Below are positions 239 to 49,910 of a DNA stretch of 64,000 nt, piece by piece. Position 1 is the stretch's first letter. Each line of letters opens with the position of its first letter. The position numbers were made by a program, and so were the translations under genes. The DNA is taken from NCBI GenBank assembly GCA_040005235.1, contig JBDTZG010000018.1:1-64000 (forward strand), read 5' to 3'. This stretch comes from Acidobacteriota bacterium. GTDB taxonomy: Bacteria > Acidobacteriota > Thermoanaerobaculia > Multivoradales > UBA5704. Under the pieces are notes generated by a model that had not been told where the DNA came from, did not search any database, and saw nothing but the letters and a program-made list of their open reading frames with translations.

Positions 239-737
239 AAAAAAGTGGTGCGCGAACGCTACGCCCAACTGCGCGGACGCTACGCGCGCCTGTAGGGACG
301 CTAGAAACAGGAACGCGAACGCAACGAAGTGGAACGCAGCCTCCGCGCTCCACTTTTTTTCGTCCGCGCCGTTCTGCGCGGCGTCCGTGTTTCAGCGTCT
401 AGCGTTCGCGCTCCCCTTCTTTGCGTTCGCTTTCCACGTTTTTGCGTTCGCGTTCTAGTTCTCAGCGTTCGCGCCGTTGCGCGTAGCGTCTGTGCACGTG
501 TGCCCAGCGTCCGTGCAGTGGTGCACAGCGTTCGTGCTCCTCCGTTTTGCGTCGCAAAACCGGCTCGGGGAGTCGGAGAAGTGGCCTCGTGCGTTCGCGC
601 TCCTGTTTCTGGTGTTCGTCAGGCGGCCCTTTGCGTTACAAGTTCGGTGTTTCGCGTCGCGAGCGCAGCAGCTTGTGTCGCAGCGGGACCGTCTTGTGTC
701 CGCCTATCGGTCGCGCGTTTCTCGGGCGGACGAGGCA
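239..737. repeat. Inverted pair of degenerate 21-bp-period tandem arrays (element 1; GCGTTC/GAACGC core)
   Basis: GAACGC/GGACGC ends at 259, 280, 301, 322. GCGTTC-like motifs start every 21 bp from 339 to about 717 (381, 402, 423, 444, 465, 486, 507, 528, 549, 591 and onward). Unit 302-322 matches the reverse complement of 591-611 at 19/21. Confidence 0.85.
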
Positions 738-1014
738 GAAGTCGCTCAGGACATTGTGCTTAGAGACTAGTGGTGCGTGGTGGCTGGAATCTCTAGCTCT
801 GTGGATCGGAGGCGGTTGCGTCTCTTGCGTTGCAAATACGACATCGAACGTGAGAGCACAACTCCGAACGCAAAGAGGTCGCTACCGCTCCCTGCCAGGT
901 TCTTCGCTCCGCCAAGGGTGTCCTGGGACCGCCGCCGTCTCGGCGGCGCGAACGGTGGGTGACCTCAGGAGCCGAACCCAGGGTGGTTCATCCGGCGATC
1001 ACCAGAGGTCGGCT

Positions 1015-1860
1015 ATGATCTTCGGCGTGGACGAGAACCGCAGAGGCTACAGTCTCAAAGCTCCCGGGCCGGGCGGGTCGGGTTCGGCGATGCGTTTGCC
1101 GGGAAGGGGCACGTTTCCGAACGTCGACGACCATCTGGTCGAGCCGGAGGTTACGCGGGACGAGATCATCGGCGGGCGGCGAGTGGTGGCGTCTCCCGCG
1201 GAAACCGCCCATGCGGATCAGCACAGCCGGCTGGATTACGTTCTTCAGGCGCATGTGGCGACGGGCTATCGCGTGTCGGTGGACCTGATCACCCGCCACG
1301 GTGAAGTGATGGATTTCGCGTCCGACGCTTGTGTGCGGCGCGAGGGAACCGATCCTGCAACCGGCCGGCGATATCTGGAAGAGATCGCATTCGAGGTGGT
1401 GTCGGAGCAGAGAGAAAAGCTGGCGACCGAAAAGGCCGAGCAAATGGGGCGGCGCGGCGTGCGGCGGATTTTCGCGATTTGGGTCAAGAGCGGCGAAGTC
1501 GGGGAGTGGTCTTCCGAGGACCAAGCCTGGCGGCGGTTGGAGGCTGGGGCTAAGATCGATGATGTTTGCCTGGTCAAGCCGCTCGAAGTCGCCGCATTGC
1601 TCGATGCCGCCGTGGCCGACAATGCCGTGGTCGAGGCGCTCGCCGCCAAAGGAAACTCGGCGATTCGGGCGCGAGACGCCGCGGCGGAAGCACGAGGAGT
1701 CGCCCGGTCGATTCTCGATGTTCTGGAAGCGCGTGCTGTTTCGGTGACCGAGGCGCAGCGGCAGCAGATTCTGAGACGCCAGGATCTCGAACGGTTGAGC
1801 CTTTGGTTGCGCCGCGCCGTTACCGCTTCGTCCGCCGCCGAAGTCTTGGCTGAACCTTAA
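1015..1860 (+). CDS. Uma2/PD-(D/E)XK-like putative endonuclease family protein
   Basis: Motifs EIIGGRRVVASPA..H, DFASDAC, EIAFEVVSEQ and RGVRRIFAI, with a C-terminal ARGVARSILDVLEAR...LSLWLRRAVTA tail typical of this family. Start uncertain (1015, 1027 or 1090). Confidence 0.65.
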   Translation: MIFGVDENRRGYSLKAPGPGGSGSAMRLPGRGTFPNVDDHLVEPEVTRDEIIGGRRVVASPAETAHADQHSRLDYVLQAHVATGYRVSVDLITRHGEVMDFASDACVRREGTDPATGRRYLEEIAFEVVSEQREKLATEKAEQMGRRGVRRIFAIWVKSGEVGEWSSEDQAWRRLEAGAKIDDVCLVKPLEVAALLDAAVADNAVVEALAAKGNSAIRARDAAAEARGVARSILDVLEARAVSVTEAQRQQILRRQDLERLSLWLRRAVTASSAAEVLAEP

Positions 1861-1929
1861 GCGGTATTGCGCCTTCGCCGCCGGCGAGGACGCCAGCGGT
1901 CCCAGGATCCCTGGACCGAACGGAGTGAT

Positions 1930-2844
1930 CTATCCGGCGACCGCGGCCCAAAGCTCGCCGAGCGCCGCGTCCAGGTCTTTCTCCGGTTTCCAGCCCAGCG
2001 CGCGGAGTTTCCCGGCATCGCCTTCGAGCAGCGGCATGTCCACCGGACGGAGGCGCTCCTTGTCTTCCTGGATCTCCACCTTCTGTCCCGAGATCGCGAT
2101 CAGGCGATCGAGGGCTTCGGCGATCGAGAAGGCTTTGCCTAAGGCTACGTTGTAGATCTCTCCCGGGGCGCCCTGTTCGGCGAGGAGGGCGAGGGCTGCC
2201 ACTCCGTCCGAGACGTGGACGAAATCGCGGCGGGCGGAGAGGTTTCCGACTTGGAGCACCGGCTCCTGTTCGCCCTTCTTGATCGCGGCGAGCTGGGCGG
2301 CGAAGGCGGGGAGGGCGAAGCGGTTTGACTGACCCGGGCCGACCAGGTTGAAACAGCGGGCGACGATCCCCCCGGCGCGTACCGTGAGCCTTTCGGCCGC
2401 GGCTTTGGTGAGGGCGTAGGGGGTGCGGGGCGCCACGGGCTGGGACTCTACGATCGGCTGATGGTCTTCGGGGACCAGACCGTAGACCTCCGCGCTGGAG
2501 GCGAGGAGGACGCGGCAGCGGGAGAGGCCCGCGGCCGCGTCGAGGACATTTTCGGTCCCCAGGACGTTCACTTGAAAATAGTCCGCCGGGCGCTGCCAGC
2601 TCTCACCGACGTGCGACAGGCCGGCGAGGTGGACGATCGCTTCGGGATTCGCGGCGCGCACCACCGCCGAGAGGCCGGCCGCGTCGAGCAGGTCGACCTC
2701 GTGCAGCTCCACCCTCTGGAGGTCCGAGGTGGTGCCCCAGGTGGTTCCGATGGTCGTGTGGCCGCGATCGAGCAGGCGCTGGGCGAGATGACCGCCGAGG
2801 AACCCGCCGACTCCCGTGACGAGCACCCGCATTGGGCTACTCAC
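1930..2844 (-). CDS. NDP-sugar epimerase/reductase (GDP-4-keto-6-deoxymannose reductase Rmd-like SDR)
   Basis: VTGVGGFLG Rossmann motif, SSAEVYG, YALTK (YxxxK), GNLSARRDF. Confidence 0.8.
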   Translation of the reverse strand: MSSPMRVLVTGVGGFLGGHLAQRLLDRGHTTIGTTWGTTSDLQRVELHEVDLLDAAGLSAVVRAANPEAIVHLAGLSHVGESWQRPADYFQVNVLGTENVLDAAAGLSRCRVLLASSAEVYGLVPEDHQPIVESQPVAPRTPYALTKAAAERLTVRAGGIVARCFNLVGPGQSNRFALPAFAAQLAAIKKGEQEPVLQVGNLSARRDFVHVSDGVAALALLAEQGAPGEIYNVALGKAFSIAEALDRLIAISGQKVEIQEDKERLRPVDMPLLEGDAGKLRALGWKPEKDLDAALGELWAAVAG

Positions 2845-3826
2845 CGACCTCCGAAAGATGACCCTTCCGGCGGAACTGGTCGCGCCAGTAGTCGAGCAGG
2901 TCGGTGAGGGTCTTCTCGAACGGGATCTGCGGCTCCCAGCCGGTGTCGGCGCGGAATTTCGAGCTGTCGCCGATCAGGATCTCGACGTCGGACGGGCGCA
3001 GGCGATCGGGATCGATCTCGATGTTCACCTTCACCTTCGAGCGGTCGAGGATCATCTGCAGCATGTCGCGGATGTGGATGCCGGTTCCCGTCGCGATGTT
3101 GTACACCTCGCCCGGCTTCGCCTTGGTCACCGCGAGCCAATAGGCGCGGACCATGTCCCGCACGTCGGTGAAGTCGCGGATCGCGTCCAAATTGCCGACC
3201 CGGATCACCGGCTCCTGGCGGCCGGCTTCGATCGCCGCCACCTGGCGGCAGAAGTTCGAGGTGACGAACACGTGGCCGCGGCGCGGGCCGGTGTGGTTGA
3301 AGCCGCGGGTGCGGATCGCCCGGATTCCGTAGGACTGGAAGTATTGATAGCCCAGGTAATCCTGCGCCACCTTGGAGACCGCGTAGGGCGAGAGCGGCCG
3401 AAGCGGGTTGGTCTCCTTGATCGGCGTCTCATCCTTGTGGACCAGGCCGTACTGCTCCGACGAGCAGGCGAGCTGGATCGCCGGGTCGAGCTTCAGCTCG
3501 CGCACCGCCTCGAACAGGTTGATCTGGCCCTGGGCGTTGATCGAGAACGTGTCGTTCGGCGCGATCCAGGAGGAGGGCACGAAGCTCTGGGCCGCGAGGT
3601 GGAAGATGTAATCCGGCTGCGACTTTTCGACCGCGCGGCGCATCGAGGTGTAGTCGCGCAGGTCGGCTTCGATCAGCGTGACCTTGCCTTCCAGGTGCTC
3701 GATGTTATCCATCTTGCTGCGCCAGCGGTTGATGCCGAAGACCTCCACGTCGGGGTGCTCGGCGAGCAGGTAGTCGGCCAGATGGGAGCCGGCAAATCCG
3801 GTGATTCCGGTGATCAGAGCTTTCAT
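2837..3826 (-). CDS. gmd: GDP-mannose 4,6-dehydratase family protein
   Basis: ITGITGFAG, HLAAQSFV, SSEQYG, SPYAVSK, FNHTGPRRG, RDFTDVRD. Confidence 0.75.
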   Translation of the reverse strand: MKALITGITGFAGSHLADYLLAEHPDVEVFGINRWRSKMDNIEHLEGKVTLIEADLRDYTSMRRAVEKSQPDYIFHLAAQSFVPSSWIAPNDTFSINAQGQINLFEAVRELKLDPAIQLACSSEQYGLVHKDETPIKETNPLRPLSPYAVSKVAQDYLGYQYFQSYGIRAIRTRGFNHTGPRRGHVFVTSNFCRQVAAIEAGRQEPVIRVGNLDAIRDFTDVRDMVRAYWLAVTKAKPGEVYNIATGTGIHIRDMLQMILDRSKVKVNIEIDPDRLRPSDVEILIGDSSKFRADTGWEPQIPFEKTLTDLLDYWRDQFRRKGHLSEVGE

Positions 3827-3881
3827 GACGGACGTTCTCCTTCGTGAGATCTCGTCGGGCGGTTCTTGGCGGCGGCCAGGT

Positions 3882-4760
3882 TCATGCGGCGGCGAGCCCG
3901 ACGTTTCGGATTCGTTCGAGGTATTCGATCATGCCCCAGGCCCAAGGCTCGACGCGGCGGCCGAGGAACGCCTCGGTTTTGGCGACGTCGAGCACCGAGT
4001 AGACCGGCCGGCGGGCCGGACGCGGGAATTGATCGGTGGTGACGGGGATCACGTCCACCCTTTCGTCCCAGTTCCGCGCGATCTCGCGCGTGAACTCGAA
4101 CCAGGTGGCGTTGGCCCGGTTACGGTAGTGATAAAGCCCCGAGGCCCCCCCCGCCGCAAGATCGGCGAGCGCGCGGGCGAGGAACGGCGTATAGGTCGGC
4201 GCCCCGGTCTGGTCGTCGACCACGCGAAGCTGGCGGTTGCCTTTTTCCATCAGCGTCACCATGGTCTTCGCGAAATTCGGGCCATAGGGACCGAACAGCC
4301 AGCTCGCGCGGACCACGAGAGCGCCTTCGTGGTGAAGCGCCCGGCGCTCGCCTTCGAGCTTGCTCTCGCCGTAGACCGACTGCGGGGCAACGGGAGAATC
4401 CTCCGGGTAGGGGTGCTTCGCTTCGCCGTCGAACACGTAATCTGTCGAGACGTGGACCAGCCGGGCGCCGATCTTTTTGCCCGCGTCGGCGATCCGGCCC
4501 ACCGCGAGGCCGTTGATCTCGAACGCCAGCTCTCGCTCGTCCTCGCAGCGGTCGACCTGGGTGTGGGCGGCGCAATTGAACACGACCTTCGGGTGGAACG
4601 ACTCCATCCAATGATCGAGATTTGCCGCATCGCGGATGTCGGCCTGACCGCGCGGCAAGGCGAGCGTCGCCCAGCCGCGGCGCCGAAGCTCCGGGGCCAG
4701 GGCACGCCCGAGCATGCCGGCGCCACCCAAGATCAGCGAGCGCAGGTCAGGCGATCCCAA
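3882..4760 (-). CDS. rfbD: dTDP-4-dehydrorhamnose reductase
   Basis: GGAGMLG, NCAAHTQVDRCE, HVSTDYVFDG, YGESKLEGE, VDDQTGAPT, RPARRPVYSVL. Start is probably TTG 4760 or CTG 4745 next to the rfbA stop. Confidence 0.9.
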   Translation of the reverse strand: MGSPDLRSLILGGAGMLGRALAPELRRRGWATLALPRGQADIRDAANLDHWMESFHPKVVFNCAAHTQVDRCEDERELAFEINGLAVGRIADAGKKIGARLVHVSTDYVFDGEAKHPYPEDSPVAPQSVYGESKLEGERRALHHEGALVVRASWLFGPYGPNFAKTMVTLMEKGNRQLRVVDDQTGAPTYTPFLARALADLAAGGASGLYHYRNRANATWFEFTREIARNWDERVDVIPVTTDQFPRPARRPVYSVLDVAKTEAFLGRRVEPWAWGMIEYLERIRNVGLAAA

Positions 4761-5814
4761 CCTCGGAGTTGTCTCCGAGGACGAAACGGTGAGCTTTGGG
4801 TTTTTCGTGGCTGCGGGCGATCTTGACGTTCCGGCCGACCAGCGAGGCATCGATCCGGCCCGGGATGTCGTGGATTTCCGAGTCGGAGAGGATGATCGAG
4901 TTCTCGATCTCGCAGCGCTCCAGCCGGCAACGCTCGCCGATCGAGGTGTAGGGACCCACGAACGCGTGGTGGATTTTGGCACCGTCGCCGATGATCACCG
5001 GGCCGCGGACGAGCGAATCGAGGATTTCGACCCCTTCGCCGATCTGCACCCGCCCTTCGATCCGGCTGCCGTGCCCGAGTGCGCTCCGGTTCTCCGGCTG
5101 GATCGTTTCGAGCACGATCCGGTTCGCCTCCAGCATGTCCTCGACTTTGCCCGTGTCCTTCCACCAGCCGCGGACGATATGGGGGTGGACCGCGAGACCG
5201 CGGTCGATCAGGTCCTGGATCGCGTCGGTGATTTCCAGCTCGCCGCGCCGGGAGGGCCGGATGCGCTTGACCGATTCATGGATGTGCCGGTCGAACATGT
5301 AGACGCCGACCAACGCCAAATTGCTTTTCGGCTCGCTCGGCTTCTCGACCAGGCGCAAGACCTTGCCGTCCTCGGTCAGCTCGGCGACGCCGAACTGCTG
5401 CGGGTTGGGCACTTCGGCGAGCAGGATCTCGCAGTTGCATTCGGAGGCTGCGAACTCTTCGACCAAACTTGCGATGCCGCCTGCGATCAGGTTGTCGCCC
5501 AGGTACATGACGAACGGCGAATCCCCGAGGAAATCCTCGGCGATCATCACCGCGTGGGCCAGGCCGCGCGGCGCGTCCTGCTCGATGTAGGTCACCGCGG
5601 CGCCGAAGCGCGAACCGTCGCCCACCGCGGCGCGAATCTCGTCCTTCGTCTCGCCGACGATGATTCCTATGTCGGTGATGCCCGCCGCGACGATCGATTC
5701 GATCGCGAAGAACAGGACCGGCTTGTTCGCCACCGGCACCAGCTGCTTGGCGGAGGTGTAGGTGAGCGGCCTGAGGCGCGTCCCTTTTCCGCCGGAGAGG
5801 ATCAGCCCCTTCAT
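4747..5814 (-). CDS. rfbA: Glucose-1-phosphate thymidylyltransferase (long form)
   Basis: LSGGKGTRLRPLT, KQLVPVANKP, YLGDN, EKP, GELEITD, WWKDTG. Confidence 0.92.
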   Translation of the reverse strand: MKGLILSGGKGTRLRPLTYTSAKQLVPVANKPVLFFAIESIVAAGITDIGIIVGETKDEIRAAVGDGSRFGAAVTYIEQDAPRGLAHAVMIAEDFLGDSPFVMYLGDNLIAGGIASLVEEFAASECNCEILLAEVPNPQQFGVAELTEDGKVLRLVEKPSEPKSNLALVGVYMFDRHIHESVKRIRPSRRGELEITDAIQDLIDRGLAVHPHIVRGWWKDTGKVEDMLEANRIVLETIQPENRSALGHGSRIEGRVQIGEGVEILDSLVRGPVIIGDGAKIHHAFVGPYTSIGERCRLERCEIENSIILSDSEIHDIPGRIDASLVGRNVKIARSHEKPKAHRFVLGDNSEVGIA

Positions 5815-5824
5815 TGCAATCTCA

Positions 5825-8230
5825 TCACTGGTCGAGCGCGTCGGTGGCGTAGGTCCGGCCGGTGAGGTCGAGGAACGTGCCGACGTTCTTCAAGCTGATC
5901 GACAGCCGGTAATCGCGGTTGTGAAGGTCGCCGACCGATTGGTCGCGCACTTCCAGGCGCAGCCCCCAGCACTGGCTGGTCCAGCTCGCGACATAGCGCT
6001 GATGCTGGAGGTTCGCGCGGTCGAGGTCGTAAGCGACCTGGCCTTCGAGACGCAGGCGGCGCGGGATGACGTTCAAGCCGGTGGTCACGCGGATCTGGTC
6101 GCCGTTGACCTCCCCCGACTGGGGCAGGTAGGTGGTAAACCAGGTCAGATCGACCGAGTTGCCGCCGTTCCAATCGACGCCGCCGGTGAACGAGCGCGAC
6201 TGGAGCTGCTTGAACAGCGTGTTGTACGAGAGGTCGATCTTGGCGTTGAACACCTTGGACGGATTCAACCGGAGCAGCGCCTCGATCGGCCCGTCGGTCG
6301 TATTGACGTGCAGCGGATCGATGGGCGAGATCTGGAGCGGCAGCTTGTTGTCTAAGCTGAACGCCTGGGCAACTTCCAAATACGCCACTTCGCGGGCGCC
6401 GCCGTCCTTCGGGTCGTCCGATTTGCCGAGAACCCTGTTGATCAACGCCACGCGTCCGACGTTCTGCGAAAACGACGAGTCGACCTCGTCGAACAAGGGG
6501 ATCACCCGGGTGTTGTCATAGTCGCCGAAGTAGGTGTAAGTGATGCGCGGCTCGATGACGTGCTTGAACTTGGTGAGCGAACCGACCTTCGCGTTGAAGA
6601 TCTTCGAGAACGACGGACCGACGATCAGGCCCGAGGCGGAGGCGAGGTTCCGCTGTTCGGTTTTCCCGGTGAACTGCTGAGTGAGAGGGTCGACCGTGTC
6701 GCCGTACCAGGTGAGCCGGTCGCCCACGGTGGCCGAAAGCGACAGCCAGGGGAAGGCGCGCACCGGCACGGTGAGCTGCGGGAACAAATCGACGCGGCCG
6801 TACTTGCCCGTCGTGCTGCCCGGGCGTTCGAGGTCGAGATAGCTGACCGAGTTCTGCGCCTGCAGATAAAGGGGCAATTTGCCGAGCCGCGTGGAGCGGA
6901 TCGAATAATCGATCTCGGGTAGCTTCCTCTGGGTGACGAACTGGCCCGTCCCGACGAAGATCTTGCGGTCGTTGAGCAGGACGTTCAGCGATTGCGGCCC
7001 CCAGTTGCCGGCGAGGAATGCGCGGCTGTCTTGGAAGCGGAACGAGTTGCGGTCGAAATCGCGCTCGAAGTCGCGGAAGAAGTTGAAATCCGAGAAATCC
7101 TCATAGGCGACGACGGCACGCAGACCCCCCGGCAGCTTGTTCATCTCGTGGTTCCAGTTGATCTTCCAGCGCCACTCATTCTCGCCGGGCAGCGCGTCGG
7201 GGTCGCGTACGGCGTAGCCTTGAAAGTCGCCGCGCGTCCCTTCGCTCGGCCGGTAGCGGAACTCGTCGCCCAGCCCCAGATAGCCCTTGGAGTAGGGATC
7301 GACGTGGAACGTCATGTCATAGCTGCGGCCCATCTCCAGGAAGTAAGCGAGGCCGATCAGGCTGCCGCGCCGGTCCGAGTAGCCGAAGTTGGGGACCAGG
7401 AAGCCCGAGCTGCGCTCGCGCTTGACCGGCCAGAGAAGATAGGGCGTATAGAAGACCGGCAGCTTTTTGGCCCGCATCGTGGCGTTGCTCGCACGGGCAT
7501 AGCCTTCGATCTCGATCGTCGCCTTCTTGACCTTGAAGCTCCAGTCCGGAACCTTCTGGCTGCACGAGGTGAAGACGCCGTTTTCCACCCGGTAGGTGGC
7601 ATCGCCGATCTTCGAGATCCGCGCGCCGGAGAAGTAGTAATCGGGGGTCACCGCGGCCTGCGCCTCGGCCATCGTGCCGGTCTTGGTCGAGAGGTCGAAT
7701 TCGAGGCTCTTGCCCGAAAGGCGCCGCGGCCCCTGGTCGAGGATGACGTTGCCTAGGGCGAGCACCTTCTTGCTGGTGAGGTCGATTTCGGCGGTATCGG
7801 CCTGGATTTCGATGTCTTGGTAGCGCAGATGGACCTCGCCGGTGAGCACGGCGTAGTCCTCGCGCTGGTATTCAAGCGATTCGGCCGAGCCGGAGGTGGC
7901 GCCGCCCCCTTTGTCGGTCGGGAACTTGAGGTCGAAATCGATCCGGTCCGGCCCGGCGCCGGGCGGGCCGGGGGGTGGAGCGGGGACCGCGGGAGCCGGG
8001 GCCGTCCCGGGAGGTTTCGTGGGGGTCGGAGTCGCCGGAGTCGCCGGAGCACCGGTCGCCGGAGGAGTCGCCTGAGCGGGCGCCGGAGAGTTTGCCGGAG
8101 CAGCGCTTTCCGGGATCGGCGGCGGAACCGGAGCGGTCGGCTCTTGGGCGGCGAGCGGACGGGGACCGGGAAGGGCGATCAAGCCGGCGGTCAGGCAGGC
8201 GAGCGCGAAAATGGGGACGCGACGGCTCAT
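5825..8230 (-). CDS. lptD: LPS-assembly protein LptD
   Basis: Signal peptide and Pro-rich linker, OstA-like N-domain (FTSC..PDW), PVFYTPY...RSSGFLVPNFG, beta-barrel C-terminus with QCW. Confidence 0.85.
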   Translation of the reverse strand: MSRRVPIFALACLTAGLIALPGPRPLAAQEPTAPVPPPIPESAAPANSPAPAQATPPATGAPATPATPTPTKPPGTAPAPAVPAPPPGPPGAGPDRIDFDLKFPTDKGGGATSGSAESLEYQREDYAVLTGEVHLRYQDIEIQADTAEIDLTSKKVLALGNVILDQGPRRLSGKSLEFDLSTKTGTMAEAQAAVTPDYYFSGARISKIGDATYRVENGVFTSCSQKVPDWSFKVKKATIEIEGYARASNATMRAKKLPVFYTPYLLWPVKRERSSGFLVPNFGYSDRRGSLIGLAYFLEMGRSYDMTFHVDPYSKGYLGLGDEFRYRPSEGTRGDFQGYAVRDPDALPGENEWRWKINWNHEMNKLPGGLRAVVAYEDFSDFNFFRDFERDFDRNSFRFQDSRAFLAGNWGPQSLNVLLNDRKIFVGTGQFVTQRKLPEIDYSIRSTRLGKLPLYLQAQNSVSYLDLERPGSTTGKYGRVDLFPQLTVPVRAFPWLSLSATVGDRLTWYGDTVDPLTQQFTGKTEQRNLASASGLIVGPSFSKIFNAKVGSLTKFKHVIEPRITYTYFGDYDNTRVIPLFDEVDSSFSQNVGRVALINRVLGKSDDPKDGGAREVAYLEVAQAFSLDNKLPLQISPIDPLHVNTTDGPIEALLRLNPSKVFNAKIDLSYNTLFKQLQSRSFTGGVDWNGGNSVDLTWFTTYLPQSGEVNGDQIRVTTGLNVIPRRLRLEGQVAYDLDRANLQHQRYVASWTSQCWGLRLEVRDQSVGDLHNRDYRLSISLKNVGTFLDLTGRTYATDALDQ

Positions 8231-8288
8231 GTCTCGAACGTTCCTCCGTGGGGCTCTCGAAGGCTTGAAGCTTAACCTCAAGTCGATC

Positions 8289-9479
8289 CTAGATCCGCTC
8301 GACGTTCAGTTCGACGACCATCGCGGTCGCCTCGCCGCCGCCGAGGCAGATCGCGGCGCAGCCGCGCGTCAGGTTTCGTTCGGCGAGCGCGTCGAGCAGG
8401 GTGACCAGGATGCGGGCGCCAGAACAGCCGATCGGATGGCCGATCGATACCGCCCCGCCGCGGACGTTGGTCCGATCGTGGCCAATCCCCAGCTCCTTCA
8501 TGAACGCCATCGCGACCACCGCAAACGCCTCGTTGACCTCCCAGAGGTCGATGTCGGCGATGGTCAAACCCGCCCGTTCGATTGCCATCTTGGCGGCGGT
8601 GACCGGCGCGGTGGTGAACCACTCGGGCGCCTGGGCGAACGTTGCGTGGGCGACGATCCGCGCGATCGGCGTCTTGCCGAGCGAAGCCGCATGGCTTGCG
8701 GTGGTCAAGACGAGCGCCGCGGCGCCGTCGTTCAGTTTGCTCGAATTGGCGGCGGTGATCGAGCCGTCCTTCTGAAACGCCGGCTTCAACCCAGGCATTT
8801 TCGCCAGATCGACCTTGAACGGCTCTTCGTCGCGCGAGACGAGCACCGGGTCGCCCTTCCTTTGCGGTACGGCGACCGGCACGATCTCCCGGGCGAAGGC
8901 GCCGCTCTCGGTCGCCGCGCGGGCACGCTCATAGCTCGCGAGCGAATAGGCGTCCTGCTCCTCCCGGGTGAACCCATACTCCCGAGCGCACAGCTCGCCG
9001 CAATTTCCCATGTGGACGTCGCCGTACGGATCCCACAGGCCGTCATGGATCATCGAGTCGATCAGCTTGCCGTGGCCGAGGCGCAGACCGTCGCGGGCGC
9101 CGAGCGCCAGATACGGCGCCTGGCTCATGCTCTCCATGCCGCCCGCGGCGACCAGGGAGAAATCGCCGCAGCGCAGGTCGTTGGCGGCCGTCATCACCGC
9201 CCGCATTCCGGAGCCGCAGACTTTGTTCAGTGTGACGGCACCGGTGCTCGGCGGGCAGCCGGCGCCCAAGGTCGCCTGGCGCGCCGGGGCTTGGCCCTGG
9301 CCGGCGGTGAGCACGCAGCCCATGTAGACCTGCTCCAGCTGATCGGGGGAAAGACCGGCGCGCTCGATCGCTCCGGCGAGCGCCTTCGCGCCGAGCGCGT
9401 GGGCGGCAAATCCGGAGAGGGAACCTTGAAAGCTTCCGATCGGCGTGCGGGCGGCACTTAAGATGACGACGTCGTCCAT
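8289..9479 (-). CDS. Acetyl-CoA C-acetyltransferase (thiolase)
   Basis: ARTPIG, NKVCGSG, GMESMS, NEAF, GHPIGCSG, ICLGGG. Confidence 0.95.
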   Translation of the reverse strand: MDDVVILSAARTPIGSFQGSLSGFAAHALGAKALAGAIERAGLSPDQLEQVYMGCVLTAGQGQAPARQATLGAGCPPSTGAVTLNKVCGSGMRAVMTAANDLRCGDFSLVAAGGMESMSQAPYLALGARDGLRLGHGKLIDSMIHDGLWDPYGDVHMGNCGELCAREYGFTREEQDAYSLASYERARAATESGAFAREIVPVAVPQRKGDPVLVSRDEEPFKVDLAKMPGLKPAFQKDGSITAANSSKLNDGAAALVLTTASHAASLGKTPIARIVAHATFAQAPEWFTTAPVTAAKMAIERAGLTIADIDLWEVNEAFAVVAMAFMKELGIGHDRTNVRGGAVSIGHPIGCSGARILVTLLDALAERNLTRGCAAICLGGGEATAMVVELNVERI

Positions 9480-9600
9480 CGGGGTCCTCGACGGGTGTTG
9501 GTGGAGATCGATGGCGTAGCTATGAAATAGCCGCACTCGAAGCGGCTTCTGGGGCGAAAGCGAGCGCGGATGCTAGCACATCTGTAGAATCCCCCCCGGC

Positions 9601-10077
9601 ATGCGGACCCTCGGCATCGACTTCGGAGAGCGTCGGATTGGACTCGCGATTTCCGACGCCGGAGGCACGTTCGCGATGCCGCTTTTCACCCTCGAACGGC
9701 GGAGCGACCCGGCGGCGATCGCCCGAATCGGCGAGATCATCCGCGAGGAGGAGGTCGAATCGCTGGTGGTCGGCGAGCCGGTCAATGTCGATGGAACCCG
9801 CGGTCCGGCGGCGGAGCGCGCCAGGAGCTTCGCGGCGAAGCTCGCCGCGGCGACCGGCCTGCCGCTCCGGCTGGTGGGCGAGACCTTGACCACGGTGGCC
9901 GCCGCGGAGCGCCTGCGCGAGGCGGGGGTCGACGCCCGCCGGGCGCGCGGGCGGATCGACTCGGTGGCGGCGCAGATCCTGCTCGAAGAGGCGCTCGCCA
10001 CGCCCCCTCCCGGGAAGGCCACCGGAGCCATCGGAGCCATCGAAGCCATCGAAGCCATCGAAAGGGCGGTCGCATGA
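9601..10077 (+). CDS. ruvX: Holliday junction resolvase-like / pre-16S rRNA nuclease RuvX (YqgF)
   Basis: LGIDFGERRIGLAISD, VVGEP, ETLTT, IDSVAAQILL. The usual DE pair reads GE here. Confidence 0.88.
   Translation: MRTLGIDFGERRIGLAISDAGGTFAMPLFTLERRSDPAAIARIGEIIREEEVESLVVGEPVNVDGTRGPAAERARSFAAKLAAATGLPLRLVGETLTTVAAAERLREAGVDARRARGRIDSVAAQILLEEALATPPPGKATGAIGAIEAIEAIERAVA
10018..10062 (+). repeat. In-frame 9-bp tandem repeat (GCCATCGRA-like x5) in the ruvX 3' end
   Basis: gccaccgga gccatcgga gccatcgaa gccatcgaa gccatcgaa, encoding ATG-AIG-AIE-AIE-AIE. Confidence 0.85.
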
Positions 10078-40367: not shown

Positions 40368-40454
40368 AACGCCCTCCCTGTGAGTCAACAAATATGCAAT
40401 GTTTCGGCCGAAGCTGTCATACAGTTGCGGTGGTCTGAGTGAGGATCTCACGAA

Positions 40455-40649: not shown

Positions 40650-40669
40650 ACATCGCGGAGAAGCAACCC

Positions 40670-40951: not shown

Positions 40952-41012
40952 GCCCGCCGATCGGGGGAAACCTCGGGAAACTCTTCGGCAAAGTCCACAG
41001 CAGGAGGTTCAA

Positions 41013-41894
41013 ATGGAAGACCTGAAATCGAAGCCGCTCGGCTCCGTCTCGAACGATGACCTGATCGAAACTCGACGCACCCTCCATTGGGCGATGGCCG
41101 CCGCCTCGGCGCCGGGCAAGCAGCTGATCCCGGCACGGCCGGATGCTGCGGAGCAGAGCCTCGTCTGGGACAGTGGGCGCTCGGCGTTCCTTCAAGGCCA
41201 GATCGCCGGGATTCATGAAACCTTCCGCTCCGCCCTGGTGGTGGACCCGCCCGCGCTTGCCCTGTTCGACAAGGCCGGCGACGAGATCGCCTCGCATCCC
41301 CTGGCCGGGCAGACTCTCGACGAGGTGTACGCCTGGCTGACGGTCGAGGTCGAGACCCGGATCGAGCATCCGCTGGGAAAGCCGCTCGAACGCCCCCTCC
41401 CGAACCAGCCGGAAGAGACCGAGATGCCCGACGCCGGCGTGGCGCACGGCGCGCCGTTCCAGTTCAATCTCGGCGGGCCGGCCGAGCTGGCGCGCTGGTT
41501 CGCATTCGGCGCGGGTCGGTTCGAAGAGATCTTGGCGAACGACCCTCAGGCGGGGGAGATTCTGCTCTGGCCCCACCATTTCGATCTCGCGACTCTGATC
41601 ACCCTCGCTGGAGAGGGCGAGAACGCCAGCACCGTGGGCGTCGGCCTGTCGCCGGGCGATTCCACTCGGCCGCTGCCCTATTTCTACGTTAACGCCTGGC
41701 CGACCCCGAAGGAACCGGCGTTGCCTGCACTCCCTTCGGGCGGCGTCTGGAACACCGAAGGGTGGTTTGGCGCCGTGCTCGAAGGCGCGCCGCTCCTCGC
41801 GCTGGGGACGGCGGAAGAGCAAGCCGCCGCAGCGCGGGACTTCCTGGCAGTGGCTCTCGAAGCTTGCCGGAGGTTCGTGCGCGAGGCCTCCTGA
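41013..41894 (+). CDS. DUF5996-like hypothetical protein
   Basis: LWPHHFDLA, GLSPGD...PYFYV..WP. Confidence 0.7.
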   Translation: MEDLKSKPLGSVSNDDLIETRRTLHWAMAAASAPGKQLIPARPDAAEQSLVWDSGRSAFLQGQIAGIHETFRSALVVDPPALALFDKAGDEIASHPLAGQTLDEVYAWLTVEVETRIEHPLGKPLERPLPNQPEETEMPDAGVAHGAPFQFNLGGPAELARWFAFGAGRFEEILANDPQAGEILLWPHHFDLATLITLAGEGENASTVGVGLSPGDSTRPLPYFYVNAWPTPKEPALPALPSGGVWNTEGWFGAVLEGAPLLALGTAEEQAAAARDFLAVALEACRRFVREAS

Positions 41895-41943
41895 AAAAGA
41901 AAACCGCCCGCCGCGAAGACTCCCACGGCGGGCGTTTCAATTT
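41894..41943. terminator. Bidirectional intrinsic terminator
   Basis: A-tract, CGCCCGCCG/CGGCGGGCG stem, T-tract, between convergent genes. Confidence 0.7.
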
Positions 41944-41967
41944 CGCAAACCGGCCGTTTCGTGCCCC

Positions 41968-44916: not shown

Positions 44917-45097
44917 GAGTCTCTCCGTGGTGTCCGGTACTCAGCCGAAGCCGACCGTGACAAAAGCCCATTTGTGCAAGACGAAGACCAGACCCGGAGG
45001 AGGACGTAGGCCCTGGGAACTTCGCTTCTATGGAAGGTGAGTCGGCAAGAAGTGCCGATTTGATATTCAGTAGCGGGCCGAACCCCGGCCAGATGTT

Positions 45098-46708
45098 TCA
45101 GTCCGCCACGACCACCCGGTCCCGCCCTTCCTGCTTTGCGCGGTATAGCGCGCGATCGGCGGCGGCGACCCATGGAGCGGGCGAGGGCTCTCCCGCGGGG
45201 ATTACGCTCGCGACCCCCACCGAAAGGGTGACCATCGGCTTGACCGTCGAGCTGGGATGGTCGATCGCGAGCCCGGCGAGCCGCTCGCGGGCCTGCTCGG
45301 CGAGCAGCGCGGCTCCGGCGAGGTTGGTGCCGCTCAAGATCACCAGGAACTCCTCGCCGCCGTAGCGGGCGACCAGGTCGCCCGGGCGCTGCACCGAGTC
45401 GCGGAGGACGCCCGCGATGCGTTGGAGACACCGGTCGCCCGCGATGTGCCCCAGGCTGTCGTTGTAGGCCTTGAAGCAATCGACATCGCAGAGGAGCAGC
45501 GACAGCGGCTCCCCGGTCCGGGCGAGCCGGCGCCATTCGAGGTCGAGCGCCTCTTCGAGCCGGCGGCGGTTCGCGACTCCGGTGAGCGGATCGATTTGCG
45601 ATATCTGTTGGAGCGTTCGATTGGCGCTCTGCAGATGCCGGTTGGCCTCTTCGAGCTGGCTCTTGGTCACCGAGATCTGCTCGTTCAGCAGCGCCATCTC
45701 GATCGCCCCGGCCACCTGGTCCGCGACCAGATCGAGCAGGCGCTGGTTTTCGACCGAAAACGCCTCCGGATCGTCGTTTTCAAGGTTGAAGGCGCCGAGC
45801 GTGCGGTCGCCGAAGCGGATCGGCGAGACGTATTCGGCTTTGACGTCGAAGGAGACCGCCCGATAGTCGGGATCGTCCGCGACATCGCGCACCAGCTGGG
45901 GCCGGCCGAGCCGGATCGCGCGGCCGACGATCCCGGCGTCGATCGCCCAGGTTTCGCGATCCGAAACGTCGATCGGCGTGCGCGTCGCCACCGCGTGGTA
46001 CGACCATTCCACCTCGGACGCCGCAGCGACCACGATGTCGACCAGCAGGAAATCGAAGCGGCGCTGAATGTAGGTCGCAATGCGGTGGAGGATGGTGCGC
46101 AGGTCGGCGCCGCCGAGCGCGGCGCGCGAGACCTCGGTCAGTACCTCGAAATGGAGCGCCCGTTGGCGGGTCGCCTCGAACAGGCGCGCGCTCGCGATGG
46201 CGCCGGAGATCTGATCGGCGATCGCCTCAACGGTCGGCAGGTGCCGGGAAAAGGCGGCCGGCCGCGGGCTTTCCAGGTTGAGCACAGCGACCACCACGCC
46301 GCGATGGCGGATCGGCGCGCACAGCTCCGAGCGGGTCCCGGGGAAGATCTCGACGAAGTCGGGGTGTTCGGCGGAGTCGTCGATCAACAGGGTGCGGCCG
46401 GTCACCGCGACCTCGCCCACCACGCCGCTGCCGAAGGGCCGGCCGTAGCCGGGGCGGACGTCGGTCGCCACCGAGCTGGTGATCGCCTCGCAGACGAAGC
46501 CTTGGCGCTCCTGATCGAGGCTGATCAGGGCGACCAGCTCCCAGCCGAACGCCGCGGCGAGCGCGTCGGTCACCCGCTGGAGCATCGGGCGCAGCTCCAG
46601 ATCCTCGGTCGCGATCCGTGCGATCGCGGCCAGCGCGGCCAGCTCGCGATCGACCGTCGGCGCGGGGGGAGGACCGCCTCCCCGACTTCTGCCCCGTTTT
46701 TCCGGCAT
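45098..46708 (-). CDS. GAF-GAF-GGDEF diguanylate cyclase
   Basis: Two GAF domains, DPLTG, RPGD I-site, GGEEF. Confidence 0.92.
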   Translation of the reverse strand: MPEKRGRSRGGGPPPAPTVDRELAALAAIARIATEDLELRPMLQRVTDALAAAFGWELVALISLDQERQGFVCEAITSSVATDVRPGYGRPFGSGVVGEVAVTGRTLLIDDSAEHPDFVEIFPGTRSELCAPIRHRGVVVAVLNLESPRPAAFSRHLPTVEAIADQISGAIASARLFEATRQRALHFEVLTEVSRAALGGADLRTILHRIATYIQRRFDFLLVDIVVAAASEVEWSYHAVATRTPIDVSDRETWAIDAGIVGRAIRLGRPQLVRDVADDPDYRAVSFDVKAEYVSPIRFGDRTLGAFNLENDDPEAFSVENQRLLDLVADQVAGAIEMALLNEQISVTKSQLEEANRHLQSANRTLQQISQIDPLTGVANRRRLEEALDLEWRRLARTGEPLSLLLCDVDCFKAYNDSLGHIAGDRCLQRIAGVLRDSVQRPGDLVARYGGEEFLVILSGTNLAGAALLAEQARERLAGLAIDHPSSTVKPMVTLSVGVASVIPAGEPSPAPWVAAADRALYRAKQEGRDRVVVAD

Positions 46709-46826
46709 GTCTCGATCTTACCCGGGGTGGAAGGCGAAGGGGAGGGGCATGCCGGCCGCGAAAAAGTACGCCCCGACCTCTGCCATACTTTCGGCCTCGA
46801 CTTTCTTTGCTCCCGAAAGGACCGCC

Positions 46827-47993
46827 ATGAGCTCTACCGAACCCGCAAATCCAGCCGACTCTTCGAGATCGGAACGCTGGTACGACCTTGGGCCGGTCGA
46901 GGAGCTGAAATCCAAACCGCTCCAGCAGATCGTGATCGGCCGGACCAAGATCGCCCTGTCGTTTCAAAACGGCGCGTTCGGGGCGGTCTCGGGCGCCTGC
47001 AATCACGTCGGCGGGCCGCTCGGCGAAGGGCATCTGGATGGCGAATATGTCGTCTGCCCGTGGCACCACTGGAAATTCCATCGAACGACCGGCGAAGGGG
47101 AGCCGGGGTTCGAGTCCGATTGCGTGCCGCGCTACTCGCTCCGCGAAGAGGAGGGCCGCCTCTGGGTCGACCTGCAACCCGCGACGAGGCGGCACAAGGC
47201 GGCGCACGATCCACATCCCCTCACCCGGCCGGTCGAGCGCGAGGTCGGGCCGATCCGCGTGCTCGGTATCGCGACGACCGTGATGGACAACGCCTATCCC
47301 CGCTACTCGACTTCGGACGAGCTGCTCGAAACGGCGCTCCATCACGCCGGGTCCCACGGCGCGGTCACCCGTTTGATCCGCCTGCGCGAGCTGGAGTTCC
47401 GGGCCTGCGAGGGGTACTACTCGAAAAGCTCCCACGCCTGCACCTGGCCCTGTTCGATTACCCAGATGGACCCGGAAGACCAGCTCGACCAGGTCTACGA
47501 GGGGCTCGTCCATTGGGCCGACGTGGTGCTCGTCTCCACCCCGATCCGCTGGGGCTCGGCCAGCTCGCTCTATTACAAGATGGTCGAGCGGATGAACTGT
47601 GTGCAAAACCAGGTGACGCTGTCGAACCGGGTGCTGCTGCGCAACAAGGTCGCGGGCTTCATCATCACCGGCGGCCAGGACAACATCCAGGCGGTCGCCG
47701 GCCAAATGCTCGGTTTCTTCGCCGAGATCGGCTGCGTCTTCCCGCAGTTTCCCTACATTGCCCACTCGCGCGGCTGGACCGCCGAGGACATGGAAAAGAA
47801 CGTCGCCTTCGTCAAGAAAAGCACGGAGCTGCACGACGCCGCGCGCGAGCTGGCCGAACGCTCGCTCTCCATGGCCGAAGCCCTGGTCACCCACACGATC
47901 GAAGGCGACCACATGGTGCGCGCCGGACGGAAAGGGTTCTCGCGCGAAGGAATCGAGACGCCCGTAGCGATCGCGGCCGCGGCGGAAAGCTGA
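46827..47993 (+). CDS. Rieske [2Fe-2S] plus flavodoxin-like (NADPH-dependent FMN reductase) fusion
   Basis: CNH...CPWH; C-terminal STPIRWG flavodoxin fold. Confidence 0.85.
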   Translation: MSSTEPANPADSSRSERWYDLGPVEELKSKPLQQIVIGRTKIALSFQNGAFGAVSGACNHVGGPLGEGHLDGEYVVCPWHHWKFHRTTGEGEPGFESDCVPRYSLREEEGRLWVDLQPATRRHKAAHDPHPLTRPVEREVGPIRVLGIATTVMDNAYPRYSTSDELLETALHHAGSHGAVTRLIRLRELEFRACEGYYSKSSHACTWPCSITQMDPEDQLDQVYEGLVHWADVVLVSTPIRWGSASSLYYKMVERMNCVQNQVTLSNRVLLRNKVAGFIITGGQDNIQAVAGQMLGFFAEIGCVFPQFPYIAHSRGWTAEDMEKNVAFVKKSTELHDAARELAERSLSMAEALVTHTIEGDHMVRAGRKGFSREGIETPVAIAAAAES

Positions 47994-47995
47994 GC

Positions 47996-49249
47996 ATGCG
48001 GCGCTTCGCCCTCGCGGCCTCTCTGCTGCTCGCGGGTTGTTTTGAGGGAACCGCGCTTGGCGCTCAGGCGCCGCGTCGGCCGTTCCCGCAACACACGGCG
48101 TATGCCGCGGGATCGATCCTTCCCGGCAATCATTCGCGGTCGGAGCTGGATGCGGCGGCCTTGGCGTTTTATCGGCTATGGAAGGCGCGTTACCTCGTTG
48201 CCGGCTGCGGCGCGGGGCGCTATTACGTGGCGGTCAACGCCGACGGCAAATTTCCCGACCCGGAGGTGCTCTCGATCTCCGAAGGGCACGGCTACGGCAT
48301 GCTGCTCACCGCGGCCTTCGCCGGAGCCGACCCGGACGCCAAGGCGATCTTCGACGGCCTCTATCGCTATTTCCGCGACCATCCGAGCGACCGAAATCCC
48401 AACGTGATGGCCTGGAAGCAGCTAGCCGATTGCGAGGACGCCCCGGACGGCCAAGACACGGCGACCGACGGCGATCTCGACGTTGGCTACGCCCTTCTGC
48501 TCGCCGACCGGCAGTGGGGAAGCGCCGGGCCGATCAACTATCTGGCCGAAGCGCGAAAGGTGATCCGGGCGATCCGCGCCGTCGAGCTCCATCCGGCCGA
48601 CGCGACGATCCAGCTCGGCAGTTGGGTCTCGACCGATCAACCGCGCCATTTCAACTCGACCCGCACGTCGGACTTTCTGCCCGGCCATTTCAAGGCGTTC
48701 CGTTTCGCCACGGGAGACGCCCGTTGGGCGACCGCCGCCAATCGCGTCTACGCCCTGGTGCAGCGGATGCAGTCGGTTTACTCGCGCGGAACCGGCCTGC
48801 TCCCCGACTTCATCGAGCGAACGAACGCCGCGCCCCGTCCGGCGAGCCCCGGCTTCCTCGAAGGCCCGAACGACGGCGCCTACTACTACAACGCCTGCCG
48901 AGACCCCTGGCGCCTCGGCCTCGACGCCCTGCTCTCAGGAGACACCCGTGGCCGCACGGCGGTCCGGAAGATCTCCGCCTTCCTCCGCACCCACGCCGCG
49001 GGCGACCCCGAACGGCTGCGCGCCGGTTTCCGCCTCGACGGCAGCGATCTGCCCGGCAACGACTACACCGACCTCTCCTTCCTCGCCCCGGCCACCGTCG
49101 GCGCCCTGCTCGAACCCGAGCACCCAGAATGGCTCGAAGGTCTCTGGGACGAGGTCGTCGGCACCCCGATCGACGAAGCGGATTACTACGGCAACACGCT
49201 CAAAGCGCTCGCCCTGCTCGCCGTTTCGGGCAACGCGTGGCGGCCGTAG
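47996..49249 (+). CDS. Glycoside hydrolase family 8 (chitosanase/glucanase-like)
   Basis: SEGHGYGM, ATDGDLD, YNACR.PWR, YYGNTL; N-terminal LLAGC. Confidence 0.9.
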   Translation: MRRFALAASLLLAGCFEGTALGAQAPRRPFPQHTAYAAGSILPGNHSRSELDAAALAFYRLWKARYLVAGCGAGRYYVAVNADGKFPDPEVLSISEGHGYGMLLTAAFAGADPDAKAIFDGLYRYFRDHPSDRNPNVMAWKQLADCEDAPDGQDTATDGDLDVGYALLLADRQWGSAGPINYLAEARKVIRAIRAVELHPADATIQLGSWVSTDQPRHFNSTRTSDFLPGHFKAFRFATGDARWATAANRVYALVQRMQSVYSRGTGLLPDFIERTNAAPRPASPGFLEGPNDGAYYYNACRDPWRLGLDALLSGDTRGRTAVRKISAFLRTHAAGDPERLRAGFRLDGSDLPGNDYTDLSFLAPATVGALLEPEHPEWLEGLWDEVVGTPIDEADYYGNTLKALALLAVSGNAWRP

Positions 49250-49310
49250 CGCGGGGGCAAAATCAAAATCCCCGCCGCTCAATGGATCGAGATCACGGAG
49301 ACGCGGCCCT

Positions 49311-49910
49311 AAGCCGCACAGAAATTCGCTGACGCGGCCGAGAAAATCGCTGAGGCCACCCGGCCAAACGGTAAAGTCACCGGGCCAATCCCTGAAGCCG
49401 CAGAGCGAAACGGTGAAGCCGCCGAAAAATTCGCCTAAGCCACTCAGAAAATGGGTGAAGCCACTCAGAAAATCACTGGGGCCACACAGAAAATCACTGA
49501 AGCCACTGAGAAATTCGCTGAAGTCCCCTAGAAAACTCCTGAGGTCACGCAGAGTGGTCAATTTCTCGGTGGCGCGACCGGATGATTGGACCCTTTCGGT
49601 GAATTATCCGGTGGCTTCATCGAATTTCTGTGTGGTTTCAGCCATCCTCCGGGGAAGTTGAACGACGTGTTGTGTAGTTTCGGTGCTCCGTTACGTGGCT
49701 TGGGCAACCGTTTGAGTGGCTTCAGTGATTTTCTGGGTGACTTCAGCGAATTTCTGGGTGGTTTCGCCCGCTGCGACCGTGGTTTTGGGGCAATTTGAGG
49801 TGCTTCGTGGCGCTTTGCGGGGCTTGGTTGCCTAACGCTGCGTGGTTTCGCGGGATTTCCTGCGTGGCTTCGCGGGAAGTCCCGCGTGGCTTGGCCCCTT
49901 CGGTAGCGGG
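49311..49910. repeat. Inverted pair of degenerate 21-bp-period tandem arrays (element 2; TGAAGCCAC/GTGGCTTCA core)
   Basis: AAGCC-like motif every 21 bp from 49311 to 49542 (12 units). GGCTT-like motif every 21 bp from 49613 to 49781, then 20-23 bp spacing to about 49890. Confidence 0.88.

Follow-up and report, generated by a model that had tools for sequence, protein, structure and literature searches.

The stretch analysed here (hereafter the window) comprises 64,000 nucleotides, namely positions 1 to 64,000 of contig JBDTZG010000018.1 from the assembly GCA_040005235.1 of an Acidobacteriota bacterium (6.22 Mb in 140 contigs, labelled G000 where it is compared with relatives); in our numbering its contig is C7. 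It carries two elements built of short units that recur every 21 bp. Element 1 extends from about 229 to 640 (~410 bp) and element 2 from 49308 to 49920 (~610 bp), the right edge of the latter being placed at the end of similarity to the orthologous copy in a related genome, G302. Their cores, GCGAACGC in element 1 and GAAGCCAC in element 2, are unrelated to each other, and both elements are 21-bp-phased and consist of two inverted arms. An initial annotation made from the sequence had described this combination, and it was borne out by Tandem Repeats Finder (TRF), by a repeat search and by lag identity; the length of 500–600 bp that it had assigned to both elements was not. In 84-bp windows the identity at lag 21 reaches maxima of 0.67 in element 1 and 0.76 in element 2, against a baseline of ~0.41–0.45 at unrelated lags elsewhere.

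The arms of element 1 use the two strands of one core, GCGTTCGC of the right arm being the reverse complement of the left-arm core. Direct-repeat families in the left arm show 21- and 63-bp spacing, and the repeat search recovered copies spaced by 21, 63 and 84 bp, the spacings in the right arm being multiples of 21. The period-21 arrays detected by TRF (402-474 and 485-537) both fall in the right arm. Eight copies of the GCGAACGC/GCGTTCGC core were found in 204-591, with the strand pattern -++-----, while its genome-wide density is 0.158 per kb. The inverted arms can be aligned over 89 nucleotides (249-337 with 429-517), which are 72% complementary. In element 2, TRF reported periods of 21 or 42 bp at 49414-49535, 49716-49760 and 49838-49892, and a consensus scan detected 11 units on the + strand in one phase followed by 8 units on the - strand (phases 15–17). 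Such consensus scans, at 13–14 matches out of 21, are too permissive in this GC-rich genome, and only clusters of the GAAGCCAC family were used from them. The inverted arms of this element are 74% complementary over 78 nucleotides (49453-49530 with 49692-49769), and its GAAGCCAC core is present in 5 copies, against 0.035 per kb genome-wide. Folded as single strands, the two elements form long imperfect hairpins with z values of -7.2 and -4.4, which no shuffled sequence equalled. Element 2 was found unchanged in the contigs of two sequencing runs that are possibly the source of this DNA, with one single contig spanning it, and neither a variant in unit number nor a joint was found in the contigs of four DNA sequencing runs. 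No RNA dataset is listed as containing element 2, and Rfam gave no match at the gathering threshold in the whole window. The arms, together with the genes discussed below, are collected in Table 1.

Table 1. Arms of the two window elements, genes next to them, and selected loci of the A and X gene families on other contigs (contig:positions; bare positions are those of the window)
Feature	Position	Strand	Description
Element 1, left arm	229..337	+	~5 units of 21 bp, GAACGC/GCGAACGC cores, purine-rich
Element 1, right arm	345..640	+	~13 units of 21 bp, GCGTTCGC cores, outward decay
Element 2, left arm	49308..49560	+	12 units of 21 bp with a (G/T)AAGCCAC core and a less constant GAGAAAWTCRCT part
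Element 2, centre	49561..49594		short, between the arms; turn of the DNA-fold hairpin
Element 2, right arm	49595..49920	+	~14 units, GTGGCTTC cores
Open reading frame ~370 bp downstream of element 1	1015..1860	+	Pfam Uma2 below threshold, E 2e-4, 21.4 bits vs cut-off 27
Glycoside hydrolase family 8 gene	47900..49249	+	Pfam Glyco_hydro_8, E 5.3e-22; stop codon 59 bp before element 2
CHAT/TPR protein gene	50135..53404	+	1089 residues; Pfam CHAT, E 7.4e-47; after element 2
A paralogue	C139:19972-20367		core CCCGA-N4-TCGGG in home array
A paralogue	C126:93820-94170		core CCGAA-N6-TTCGG in home array
X-A locus	C123:12213-13144		non-canonical Pterin_4a (PCD/DCoH-like) gene upstream of A
X-A locus	C10:20211-21060		non-canonical Pterin_4a (PCD/DCoH-like) gene upstream of A
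X-A locus	C69:23440-24622		non-canonical Pterin_4a (PCD/DCoH-like) gene upstream of A
X-A locus	C52:7988-9386		non-canonical Pterin_4a (PCD/DCoH-like) gene upstream of A

The initial annotation had proposed a scan for period-21 signal, and such scans of the assembly and of relatives revealed far more than two instances. Loci were called from 84-bp windows with an identity of at least 0.62 at lag 20, 21, 22 or 42 that was also at least 0.2 above the identity at lags 15, 18, 24 and 27. This fine lag scan yielded 107 array loci in the assembly (44, 35, 27 and 1 at lags 21, 42, 20 and 22, respectively), as opposed to 18 in a mirror test on the control lags 15, 18, 24 and 27; a first autocorrelation scan at lag 21 had found 67. 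Likewise, the non-redundant TRF arrays number 146 at period 21 against 99 at period 18 and 50 at period 24, with 29, 19 and 8 more at periods 42, 63 and 84. Hence, the period is not strictly 21 bp as first thought; members of the class may also repeat every 20 or 22 bp, or at twice any of these distances. Common 11-mers group the 107 loci into ~30 sequence families, a count in which single linkage merges some. In layout, 64 loci are one-directional and 29 consist of palindromic units, and because inverted arms are clear in only 6 and possible in 8 others, the class is defined by its phasing and not by the two-armed palindrome with which it had been equated. Individual arrays reach 10–27 units, and 18 of the 107 loci lie at contig ends. 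The broader claim of the initial annotation, that of an undescribed class in which geometry is kept and sequence is not, with any cognate factor encoded elsewhere, held up: the class has no Rfam match, and a full-text literature search returned nothing on such arrays in Acidobacteriota or on the protein A introduced below.

The arrays occupy unusually long non-coding DNA. Judging the coding state of the flanks by codon-usage frame scores, we found a coding-like frame to be absent from both 330-bp flanks at 48 of the 89 loci that do not touch a contig end, and present in both at 4; random 330-bp windows were called coding in 1382 of 2000 cases. The surroundings of arrays are also more often low in GC content, with a 2-kb flank below 0.60 GC in 16.9% of the cases compared to 7.7% of random sites (Mann-Whitney p 5e-9), an enrichment that may in part merely reflect non-coding DNA. 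The largest family with a 20-bp period includes 19 loci with units containing GATAGCGGCTATC and CCAGGAAG (for example, C8:129706-130015, C82:130661-131021 and C56:53701-53956), and related to it are mosaic arrays of 41-bp units, such as those at C58:11752-12033 and C85:2284-2578.

We then took the 70 longer TRF arrays, those of at least 110 bp, and clustered the open reading frames (ORFs) found up to 2 kb away from them. No family common to the flanks of these arrays emerged as the recurring downstream gene that had been anticipated. The partner that did recur is a family of small helical proteins, here termed A, and not a recombinase, reverse transcriptase, primase or HUH nuclease, as the initial annotation had envisaged. 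In this clustering A is present at 8 loci, with its start always directed toward the array and with a different repeat sequence at each locus. A genome search recovered 22 copies of A, and a search with a hidden Markov model (HMM) 28 paralogous ORFs. An array at lag 20, 21 or 42 (identity at least 0.57) lies within 800 bp upstream of 17 of these 28 genes and downstream of none, when ~0.4 would be expected from the density of arrays. The distance from the end of the array to the start codon of A is 32–253 bp. These home arrays comprise 10–17 units when laid out in rows, with variable linkers and a conserved core that often has dyad symmetry, as in GGAAnnTTCC, CCCGA-N4-TCGGG and CCGAA-N6-TTCGG. 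A comparable upstream location was seen among the best A loci from 24 related genomes, with an array present in 13 of the 27 that could be evaluated.

The sequence of the home array covaries with that of the protein encoded next to it. At least 5% of the upstream 9-mers are common to both members in 9 of 13 pairs of A proteins with at least 60% identity, and in 1 of 388 pairs with less than 45% identity; the overall correlation between protein and upstream 9-mer similarity (Spearman r 0.19) was reached in 2 of 2000 permutations. The arrays nevertheless evolve fast, in that A orthologues with 94% identical proteins have 25% of their upstream 9-mers in common.

The sole recurrent neighbour of A, observed at 4 of the 28 loci, is a gene resembling Pterin_4a/DCoH, here called X (Pfam E values from 3.7e-14 to 2.7e-5), with which A apparently forms a two-gene operon. 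On C123, C10 and C69, X is directly upstream of A without an array, on C52 an array lies between the two genes, and the 1.8 kb upstream of the Pterin_4a-like/A operons in this genome contain no array. One 21-bp repeat, GTAGTGAGCTGGCCCAGSCCG, occurs both at the end of contig C59 (71628-71847) and at the start of C127 (1-272), and the two contigs probably join there, in the order Pterin_4a-like gene, array, A gene. Among the 28 best loci from relatives, X is upstream of A in 10, with no array in 9 of these. DCoH binds the helical dimerisation domain of HNF1, which the pairing of X and A recalls. On the far side of the home arrays no gene recurs, MarR-like, XRE-like, PIN-like and other genes being encountered once each, and no transposase or recombinase recurs in the clustered array flanks or among the neighbours of A genes.

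Two other arrangements were considered and set aside. HTH-TPR regulators occur at 8 of the 70 longer arrays, but of their 39 paralogues only 4 are followed by an array at a distance of up to 700 bp, and their link to the arrays is a secondary association. The idea that arrays are terminal inverted repeats of an A cassette, with the foldback-shaped orphans as its deletion derivatives, was rejected because none of the 28 A genes has a downstream array. Arrays of the GAGCTGGCCCAGATCACCACT family are situated just past the 3' end of some of these HTH(XRE)-TPR genes (C18:145130-147457, C137:2536-4159 and C8:181721-184150).

The A proteins are 115–140 residues long (13 kDa) and all-helical, with a conserved G-F-x-N-P...F-G-[IV]-R motif and a basic tail. 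They belong to no Pfam or NCBIfam family, a Foldseek search of the model against the PDB gave no match at E<=0.001, and the matches in the ESM Atlas are unnamed Acidobacteriota clusters only. A profile search of 1.84 billion representative sequences recovered 1313 clusters at E<=0.001 and 599 at E<=1e-10, nearly all of them 105–170 residues in length, which marks A as a genuine and conserved family. In the AlphaFold2 model, computed from an alignment of 23 rows (pLDDT 86), helices are predicted at 6-20, 30-87 and 93-96, followed by a disordered basic tail, with no strand. The model of a homodimer scored 0.66, the best of three controls being 0.00. In a benchmark, that mark was attained by 20 of 30 pairs formed by one chain versus 1 of 23 single chains, counts that hold only roughly, since our own alignment was the input. 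The homodimer runs agreed in 100% of contacts, with a pLDDT of at least 84 for the partner, and the predicted contacts 44-68, 37-76 and 51-61 indicate that the long helices pair in the antiparallel orientation. By simple arithmetic the 58-residue helix would be ~85 Å long and a 21-bp unit ~71 Å, a resemblance from which arises the idea that the protein could act as a ruler.

The phyletic distribution of A is narrow. Of 24 other genomes in the taxonomic family of the present one, 23 contain it (4–49 matches each). In 16 genomes from other families of the order it was not detected, and among 300 other genomes sampled from the phylum, for which only 14 candidates were scored per genome, 1 has it. 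Evenly spaced 20-kb pieces of several relatives were sampled, a small set of related genomes that does not amount to a statistical test. With 49 and 16 matches to A, genomes G313 and G314 have 16 and 7 array loci, respectively, in 400 kb each, and the present genome, with its 28 paralogues, has 6.9 loci per 400 kb over the whole assembly. Three genomes with no match to A gave 3 loci in 400 kb (G186), 1 in 200 kb (G266) and 0 in 100 kb (G329). On inspection, all four loci in these A-negative genomes proved to be a 7-mer repeat or open, coding-looking repeat frames, and two inspected loci of G313 included one typical array of 27 units and one coding heptad. Thus, typical arrays were seen only in the A-bearing genomes sampled.

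Both families represented in the window are dispersed in the genus. Allowing at most 1 mismatch, we counted 30 occurrences of the pattern GAAGCCAC-N13-GAAGCCAC in this genome and 32–84 in five others of the genus; a reversed control pattern occurs 0–7 times in most genomes and 22 times in one. The family is present in 6 of 8 genomes of the genus, the other two being G301 and G305, of which the latter is 85% complete. In this genome, the + arm precedes the - arm in all 5 two-armed loci of the family (on C7, C24, C35, C54 and C74), and the same order was seen in 17 of 17 two-armed loci tallied from the places listed for relatives. The common polarity that the initial annotation had stressed is explained by the membership of each element in a dispersed family of its own. 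The two may or may not have a generating mechanism in common, as was also suggested. The GCGAACGC pattern shows the same behaviour in 8 of 8 genomes of the genus, with the matches in G301 having the appearance of scattered singletons. In G303, an inverted array resembling element 1 lies ~580 bp upstream of an X-A operon (contig C24), and by the places listed an array of the GCGAACGC type would lie 1.1–1.3 kb upstream of an A gene both there and in G307 (contig C187). The A protein of the former locus has its best match in the present genome at 57% identity and has no close orthologue. A weak partial match to Y1_Tnp (IS200/RAYT-like) occurs at C35:3587-3805, in a 343-codon open frame that follows the GAAGCCAC element of this contig (C35:2560-3147) at a distance of ~440 bp; it is a single case and compatible with chance.

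Element 2 can be followed at orthologous sites. In G302 (contig C2) the region corresponding to 47800 to 49920 of the window, including the glycoside hydrolase family 8 (GH8) gene, aligns with 80% identity. In G303 (contig C4) the element is present, but the GH8 gene (about 48010-49310 of the window) is missing, so that the sequence to its left and element 2 are adjacent, implying that the array outlived the gain or loss of a gene at this site. The corresponding site of G301 has no array, and another gene begins 28 bp past the GH8 stop codon; a target-site duplication is unreadable because this empty site differs throughout its downstream flank. The right flank of element 2 has no similar sequence at the orthologous sites of G302, G301 and G303. 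A stretch of lower GC content (0.50–0.57 versus ~0.65) starts right of the element, at 50001-56000, opening with the CHAT/TPR gene, and is probably a variable island with its edge marked by the array. The nuclease-like or accessory character that the initial annotation had ascribed to the genes following the two elements could not be confirmed as common to both, the first offering a sub-threshold match to Uma2 and the second being of the CHAT/TPR type. The window also contains a 9-bp tandem repeat at 10018-10062 (GCCATCGAA, 5 copies) and GC-rich tandem repeats of 9, 12 and 24 bp at 8027-8101; both lie probably inside coding regions and are unrelated to the 21-bp class.

Taken together, we propose that the arrays are phased binding platforms for the A-family proteins, and that the elements of the window are orphan, foldback-shaped copies of such platforms, a reading to which we would give an even chance of being correct. 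Each unit consists of a conserved core of ~8–14 bp, often dyad-symmetric, and a variable linker, repeated every 20–21 bp. As this distance equals two turns of B-DNA, A proteins could bind along one face of the DNA, perhaps cooperatively, and the antiparallel A dimer, a putative rod of roughly one repeat length, could set the period. The home array in front of most A genes would probably serve in autoregulation, and further arrays of the same sequence families scattered through long non-coding regions would be additional targets, with repression, titration or chromosome structuring as the possible effect.

Several observations weigh against this proposal. A has no DNA-binding domain recognisable in Pfam, in NCBIfam or by Foldseek against the PDB. 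An upstream array is lacking in 11 of the 28 paralogues; conversely, roughly every second array family is without a home copy in this fragmented assembly, among them the largest 20-bp family, whose 19 loci include none beside an A gene. None of the examined copies of either window family adjoins an A gene, and the GAAGCCAC loci sampled in relatives have neither an A nor an X gene closer than 1.5 kb. The HMM search detected no A paralogue on the contig of the window. Orphan arrays show no bias in orientation, 18 facing the start of a gene and 19 the end, and co-duplication of neighbours alone would also yield the covariation between gene and array. Moreover, in three of the five two-armed GAAGCCAC copies (those on C35, C54 and C74), one frame on the + strand is open through both arms.

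These open frames bear on an explanation suggested by the period itself, as 21 bp equal seven codons: the arrays could be decayed or live heptad-repeat coding sequence, of the form (E-A-T-x-K-I-T)n and (G-F-S-E-F-L-x)n. Two frames are indeed open along each arm in the window, and some period-21 matches are real coding heptads, such as C45:45685 in this genome and L149 in G313. However, the heptad-like frame of element 2 is interrupted by three stops (TAA, TAA and TAG), and its two arms are not spanned by any open frame. The mean information is 0.83 bit at first, 1.1 at second and 0.96 bit at third codon positions, with no relaxation of the third; the codon-usage score is near zero inside arrays, and five frames tested gave no Pfam match. 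Furthermore, the 20-bp period of 27 of the 107 loci, some directly upstream of A genes and placed like the 21-bp arrays, is not that of a codon repeat, and home arrays sit in promoter regions. A derivation from decayed heptad-repeat genes, which the initial annotation had named among the outcomes that would undo its claim, is hence not supported, and we consider a coding origin of any kind highly improbable. A further alternative concerns RNA: the arrays might be transcribed, inverted-arm copies forming long imperfect hairpins that act as a sponge, as a double-stranded RNA substrate or as the 5' leader of A, with the tail of A binding RNA. This would fit the far better folding of both window elements than of their shuffles, the location of home arrays behind a possible promoter and ahead of the start codon of A, and the basic, disordered tail. 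Yet the 64 one-directional loci have no hairpin partner, the arms are only 72–80% complementary, there is no Rfam family, and a two-turn period is a property of duplex DNA for which RNA has no need; this alternative appears distinctly unlikely.

A more serious contender, if still on the improbable side, sees the arrays as satellite-like DNA, selfish or neutral, that was dispersed as foldback or MITE-like (miniature inverted-repeat transposable element) repeats by an unknown copy mechanism and homogenised internally by unequal exchange. The 20–21-bp period would then be inherited from an ancestor and unselected, and the link with A would reflect one array lineage residing in A promoters. Much of what we observed is compatible with this, including the multi-copy, genus-wide occurrence of both window families with a fixed arm order, the retention of element 2 in G302 and, without the GH8 gene, in G303 alongside its absence from the G301 site, the loci at contig ends, the low GC content of array flanks, and the much faster evolution of arrays than of the adjacent protein. 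Against it stand the lack of any transposase or recombinase recurring beside arrays and of a readable target-site duplication at the empty site of G301, whose downstream flank is unrelated. Neutral slippage also leaves unexplained the upstream-only placement at A genes (17 versus 0 of 28), the conserved cores within variable linkers, and the maintenance of the two-turn period in both 20- and 21-bp forms. Iterons or the centromere of an integrated plasmid-like replicon, of the Rep/iteron or ParR/parC type, would by analogy present the same geometry, with direct repeats of ~20–22 bp before a small gene and extra clusters elsewhere. However, neither Rep nor ParA/ParM nor any other gene for replication or partition was seen repeatedly beside arrays or A genes, A has no winged-helix or ribbon-helix-helix signature, and 28 gene copies and 107 arrays are spread over the whole assembly, all of which makes a replicon origin very unlikely.

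Were the arrays indeed platforms for A, one may go a step further, if with considerable doubt, and envisage a chromosomal 'address' system in one soil Acidobacteriota family, of a kind not described in bacteria, in which each A paralogue reads its own repeat. In such a system the dimer rod, with its 58-residue helix of ~85 Å, might be the ruler for the 20–21-bp (~70 Å) spacing of sites. Home arrays would autoregulate, and the more than 100 orphan arrays, foldback-shaped ones like the pair in the window among them, would nucleate protein filaments that structure, insulate or silence regions of the chromosome, often beside variable DNA of low GC content. If true, this would represent a large lineage-specific expansion of pairs of proteins and repeat arrays on a bacterial chromosome, with more than 100 target arrays per genome; it would be an iteron- or centromere-like concept realised with a new protein fold family and multiplied tens of times. 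It would allow one to test by what means a simple coiled-coil protein recognises DNA and imposes a two-turn register, provide a source of many naturally orthogonal pairs of protein and DNA array, and explain the repeats that break soil Acidobacteriota assemblies, as illustrated by the 18 loci at contig ends. Even if the arrays are selfish, the literature searched contained no description of bacterial foldback-like elements composed of phased subrepeats.

Several known systems invite comparison with these arrays. The iterons of plasmids such as P1 (incC/incA-RepA), F, RK2 and pPS10 are direct repeats before the initiator gene, with extra clusters that can titrate or pair. The array periods, 20, 21 or 22 bp or twice these values, fit the ~17–22 bp of iterons at two-turn spacing, and the arrays likewise sit before the gene of the presumed binding protein. 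Unlike in iterons, the adjacent A is a 13-kDa helical protein with no match to Rep or winged-helix proteins (in Pfam, NCBIfam, its model or the PDB), paralogue/array pairs number in the tens per chromosome, the arrays, more than 100 in all, reach 10–27 units, and no origin features or replication genes were linked to them in the clustered array flanks or among the neighbours of A genes. Among type II partition centromeres, parC of R1 consists of two blocks of five 11-bp iterons and that of pSK41 of 20-bp repeats. Here too, the array is upstream of a gene that it would control and whose small protein product would occupy the phased repeats cooperatively, the upstream placement being that observed for A (17 of 28 genes upstream, 0 of 28 downstream), and two blocks can flank a centre; in contrast to ParR/parC, no ParM or other NTPase gene is adjacent, A is predicted to be all-helical and not ribbon-helix-helix, and the arrangement is chromosomal and massively paralogous, and includes orphan arrays.

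The foldback (FB) transposable elements of eukaryotes have long inverted arms of short tandem subrepeats with little or no loop. Elements 1 and 2 resemble them in having inverted arms of tandem units that are degenerate toward one side, and in their many dispersed copies of fixed architecture, but the host is bacterial, no autonomous copy with a transposase was found in the clustered array flanks or at the sampled loci of relatives, a target duplication was unreadable at the G301 site, and most members of the class are one-directional. REP/BIME-RAYT elements of Proteobacteria are, like the arrays, short, partly palindromic, intergenic and dispersed, and they can be clustered and bind nucleoid proteins; the units described here differ in being tandem at a fixed 20–21-bp phase and in reaching more than 10 copies. 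A link to RAYT is not supported, in that only one, weak, match among the 11 to Y1_Tnp (PF01797) in the genome is within 500 bp of an array (C35:3587), with ~0.25 such neighbours expected from the density of arrays. Nucleoid proteins of the H-NS/Lsr2 type, comparable in their mode of action only, are small and oligomerise through a long helix, and a short basic region at their C-terminus contacts DNA. Several A tails carry K/R-R-G-R-K, which may be analogous to their minor-groove 'RGR' hook, whereas A has no match in sequence or fold, and H-NS-type proteins read AT-rich DNA loosely and not paralogue-specific phased cores. The arrays are set apart from iterons and ParR/parC because neither the protein family nor the neighbouring genes correspond, despite the same geometry and layout. 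By analogy, the nearest known designs would appear to be plasmid iterons and ParR/parC and, for the two-armed copies such as those in the window, the eukaryotic foldback element.

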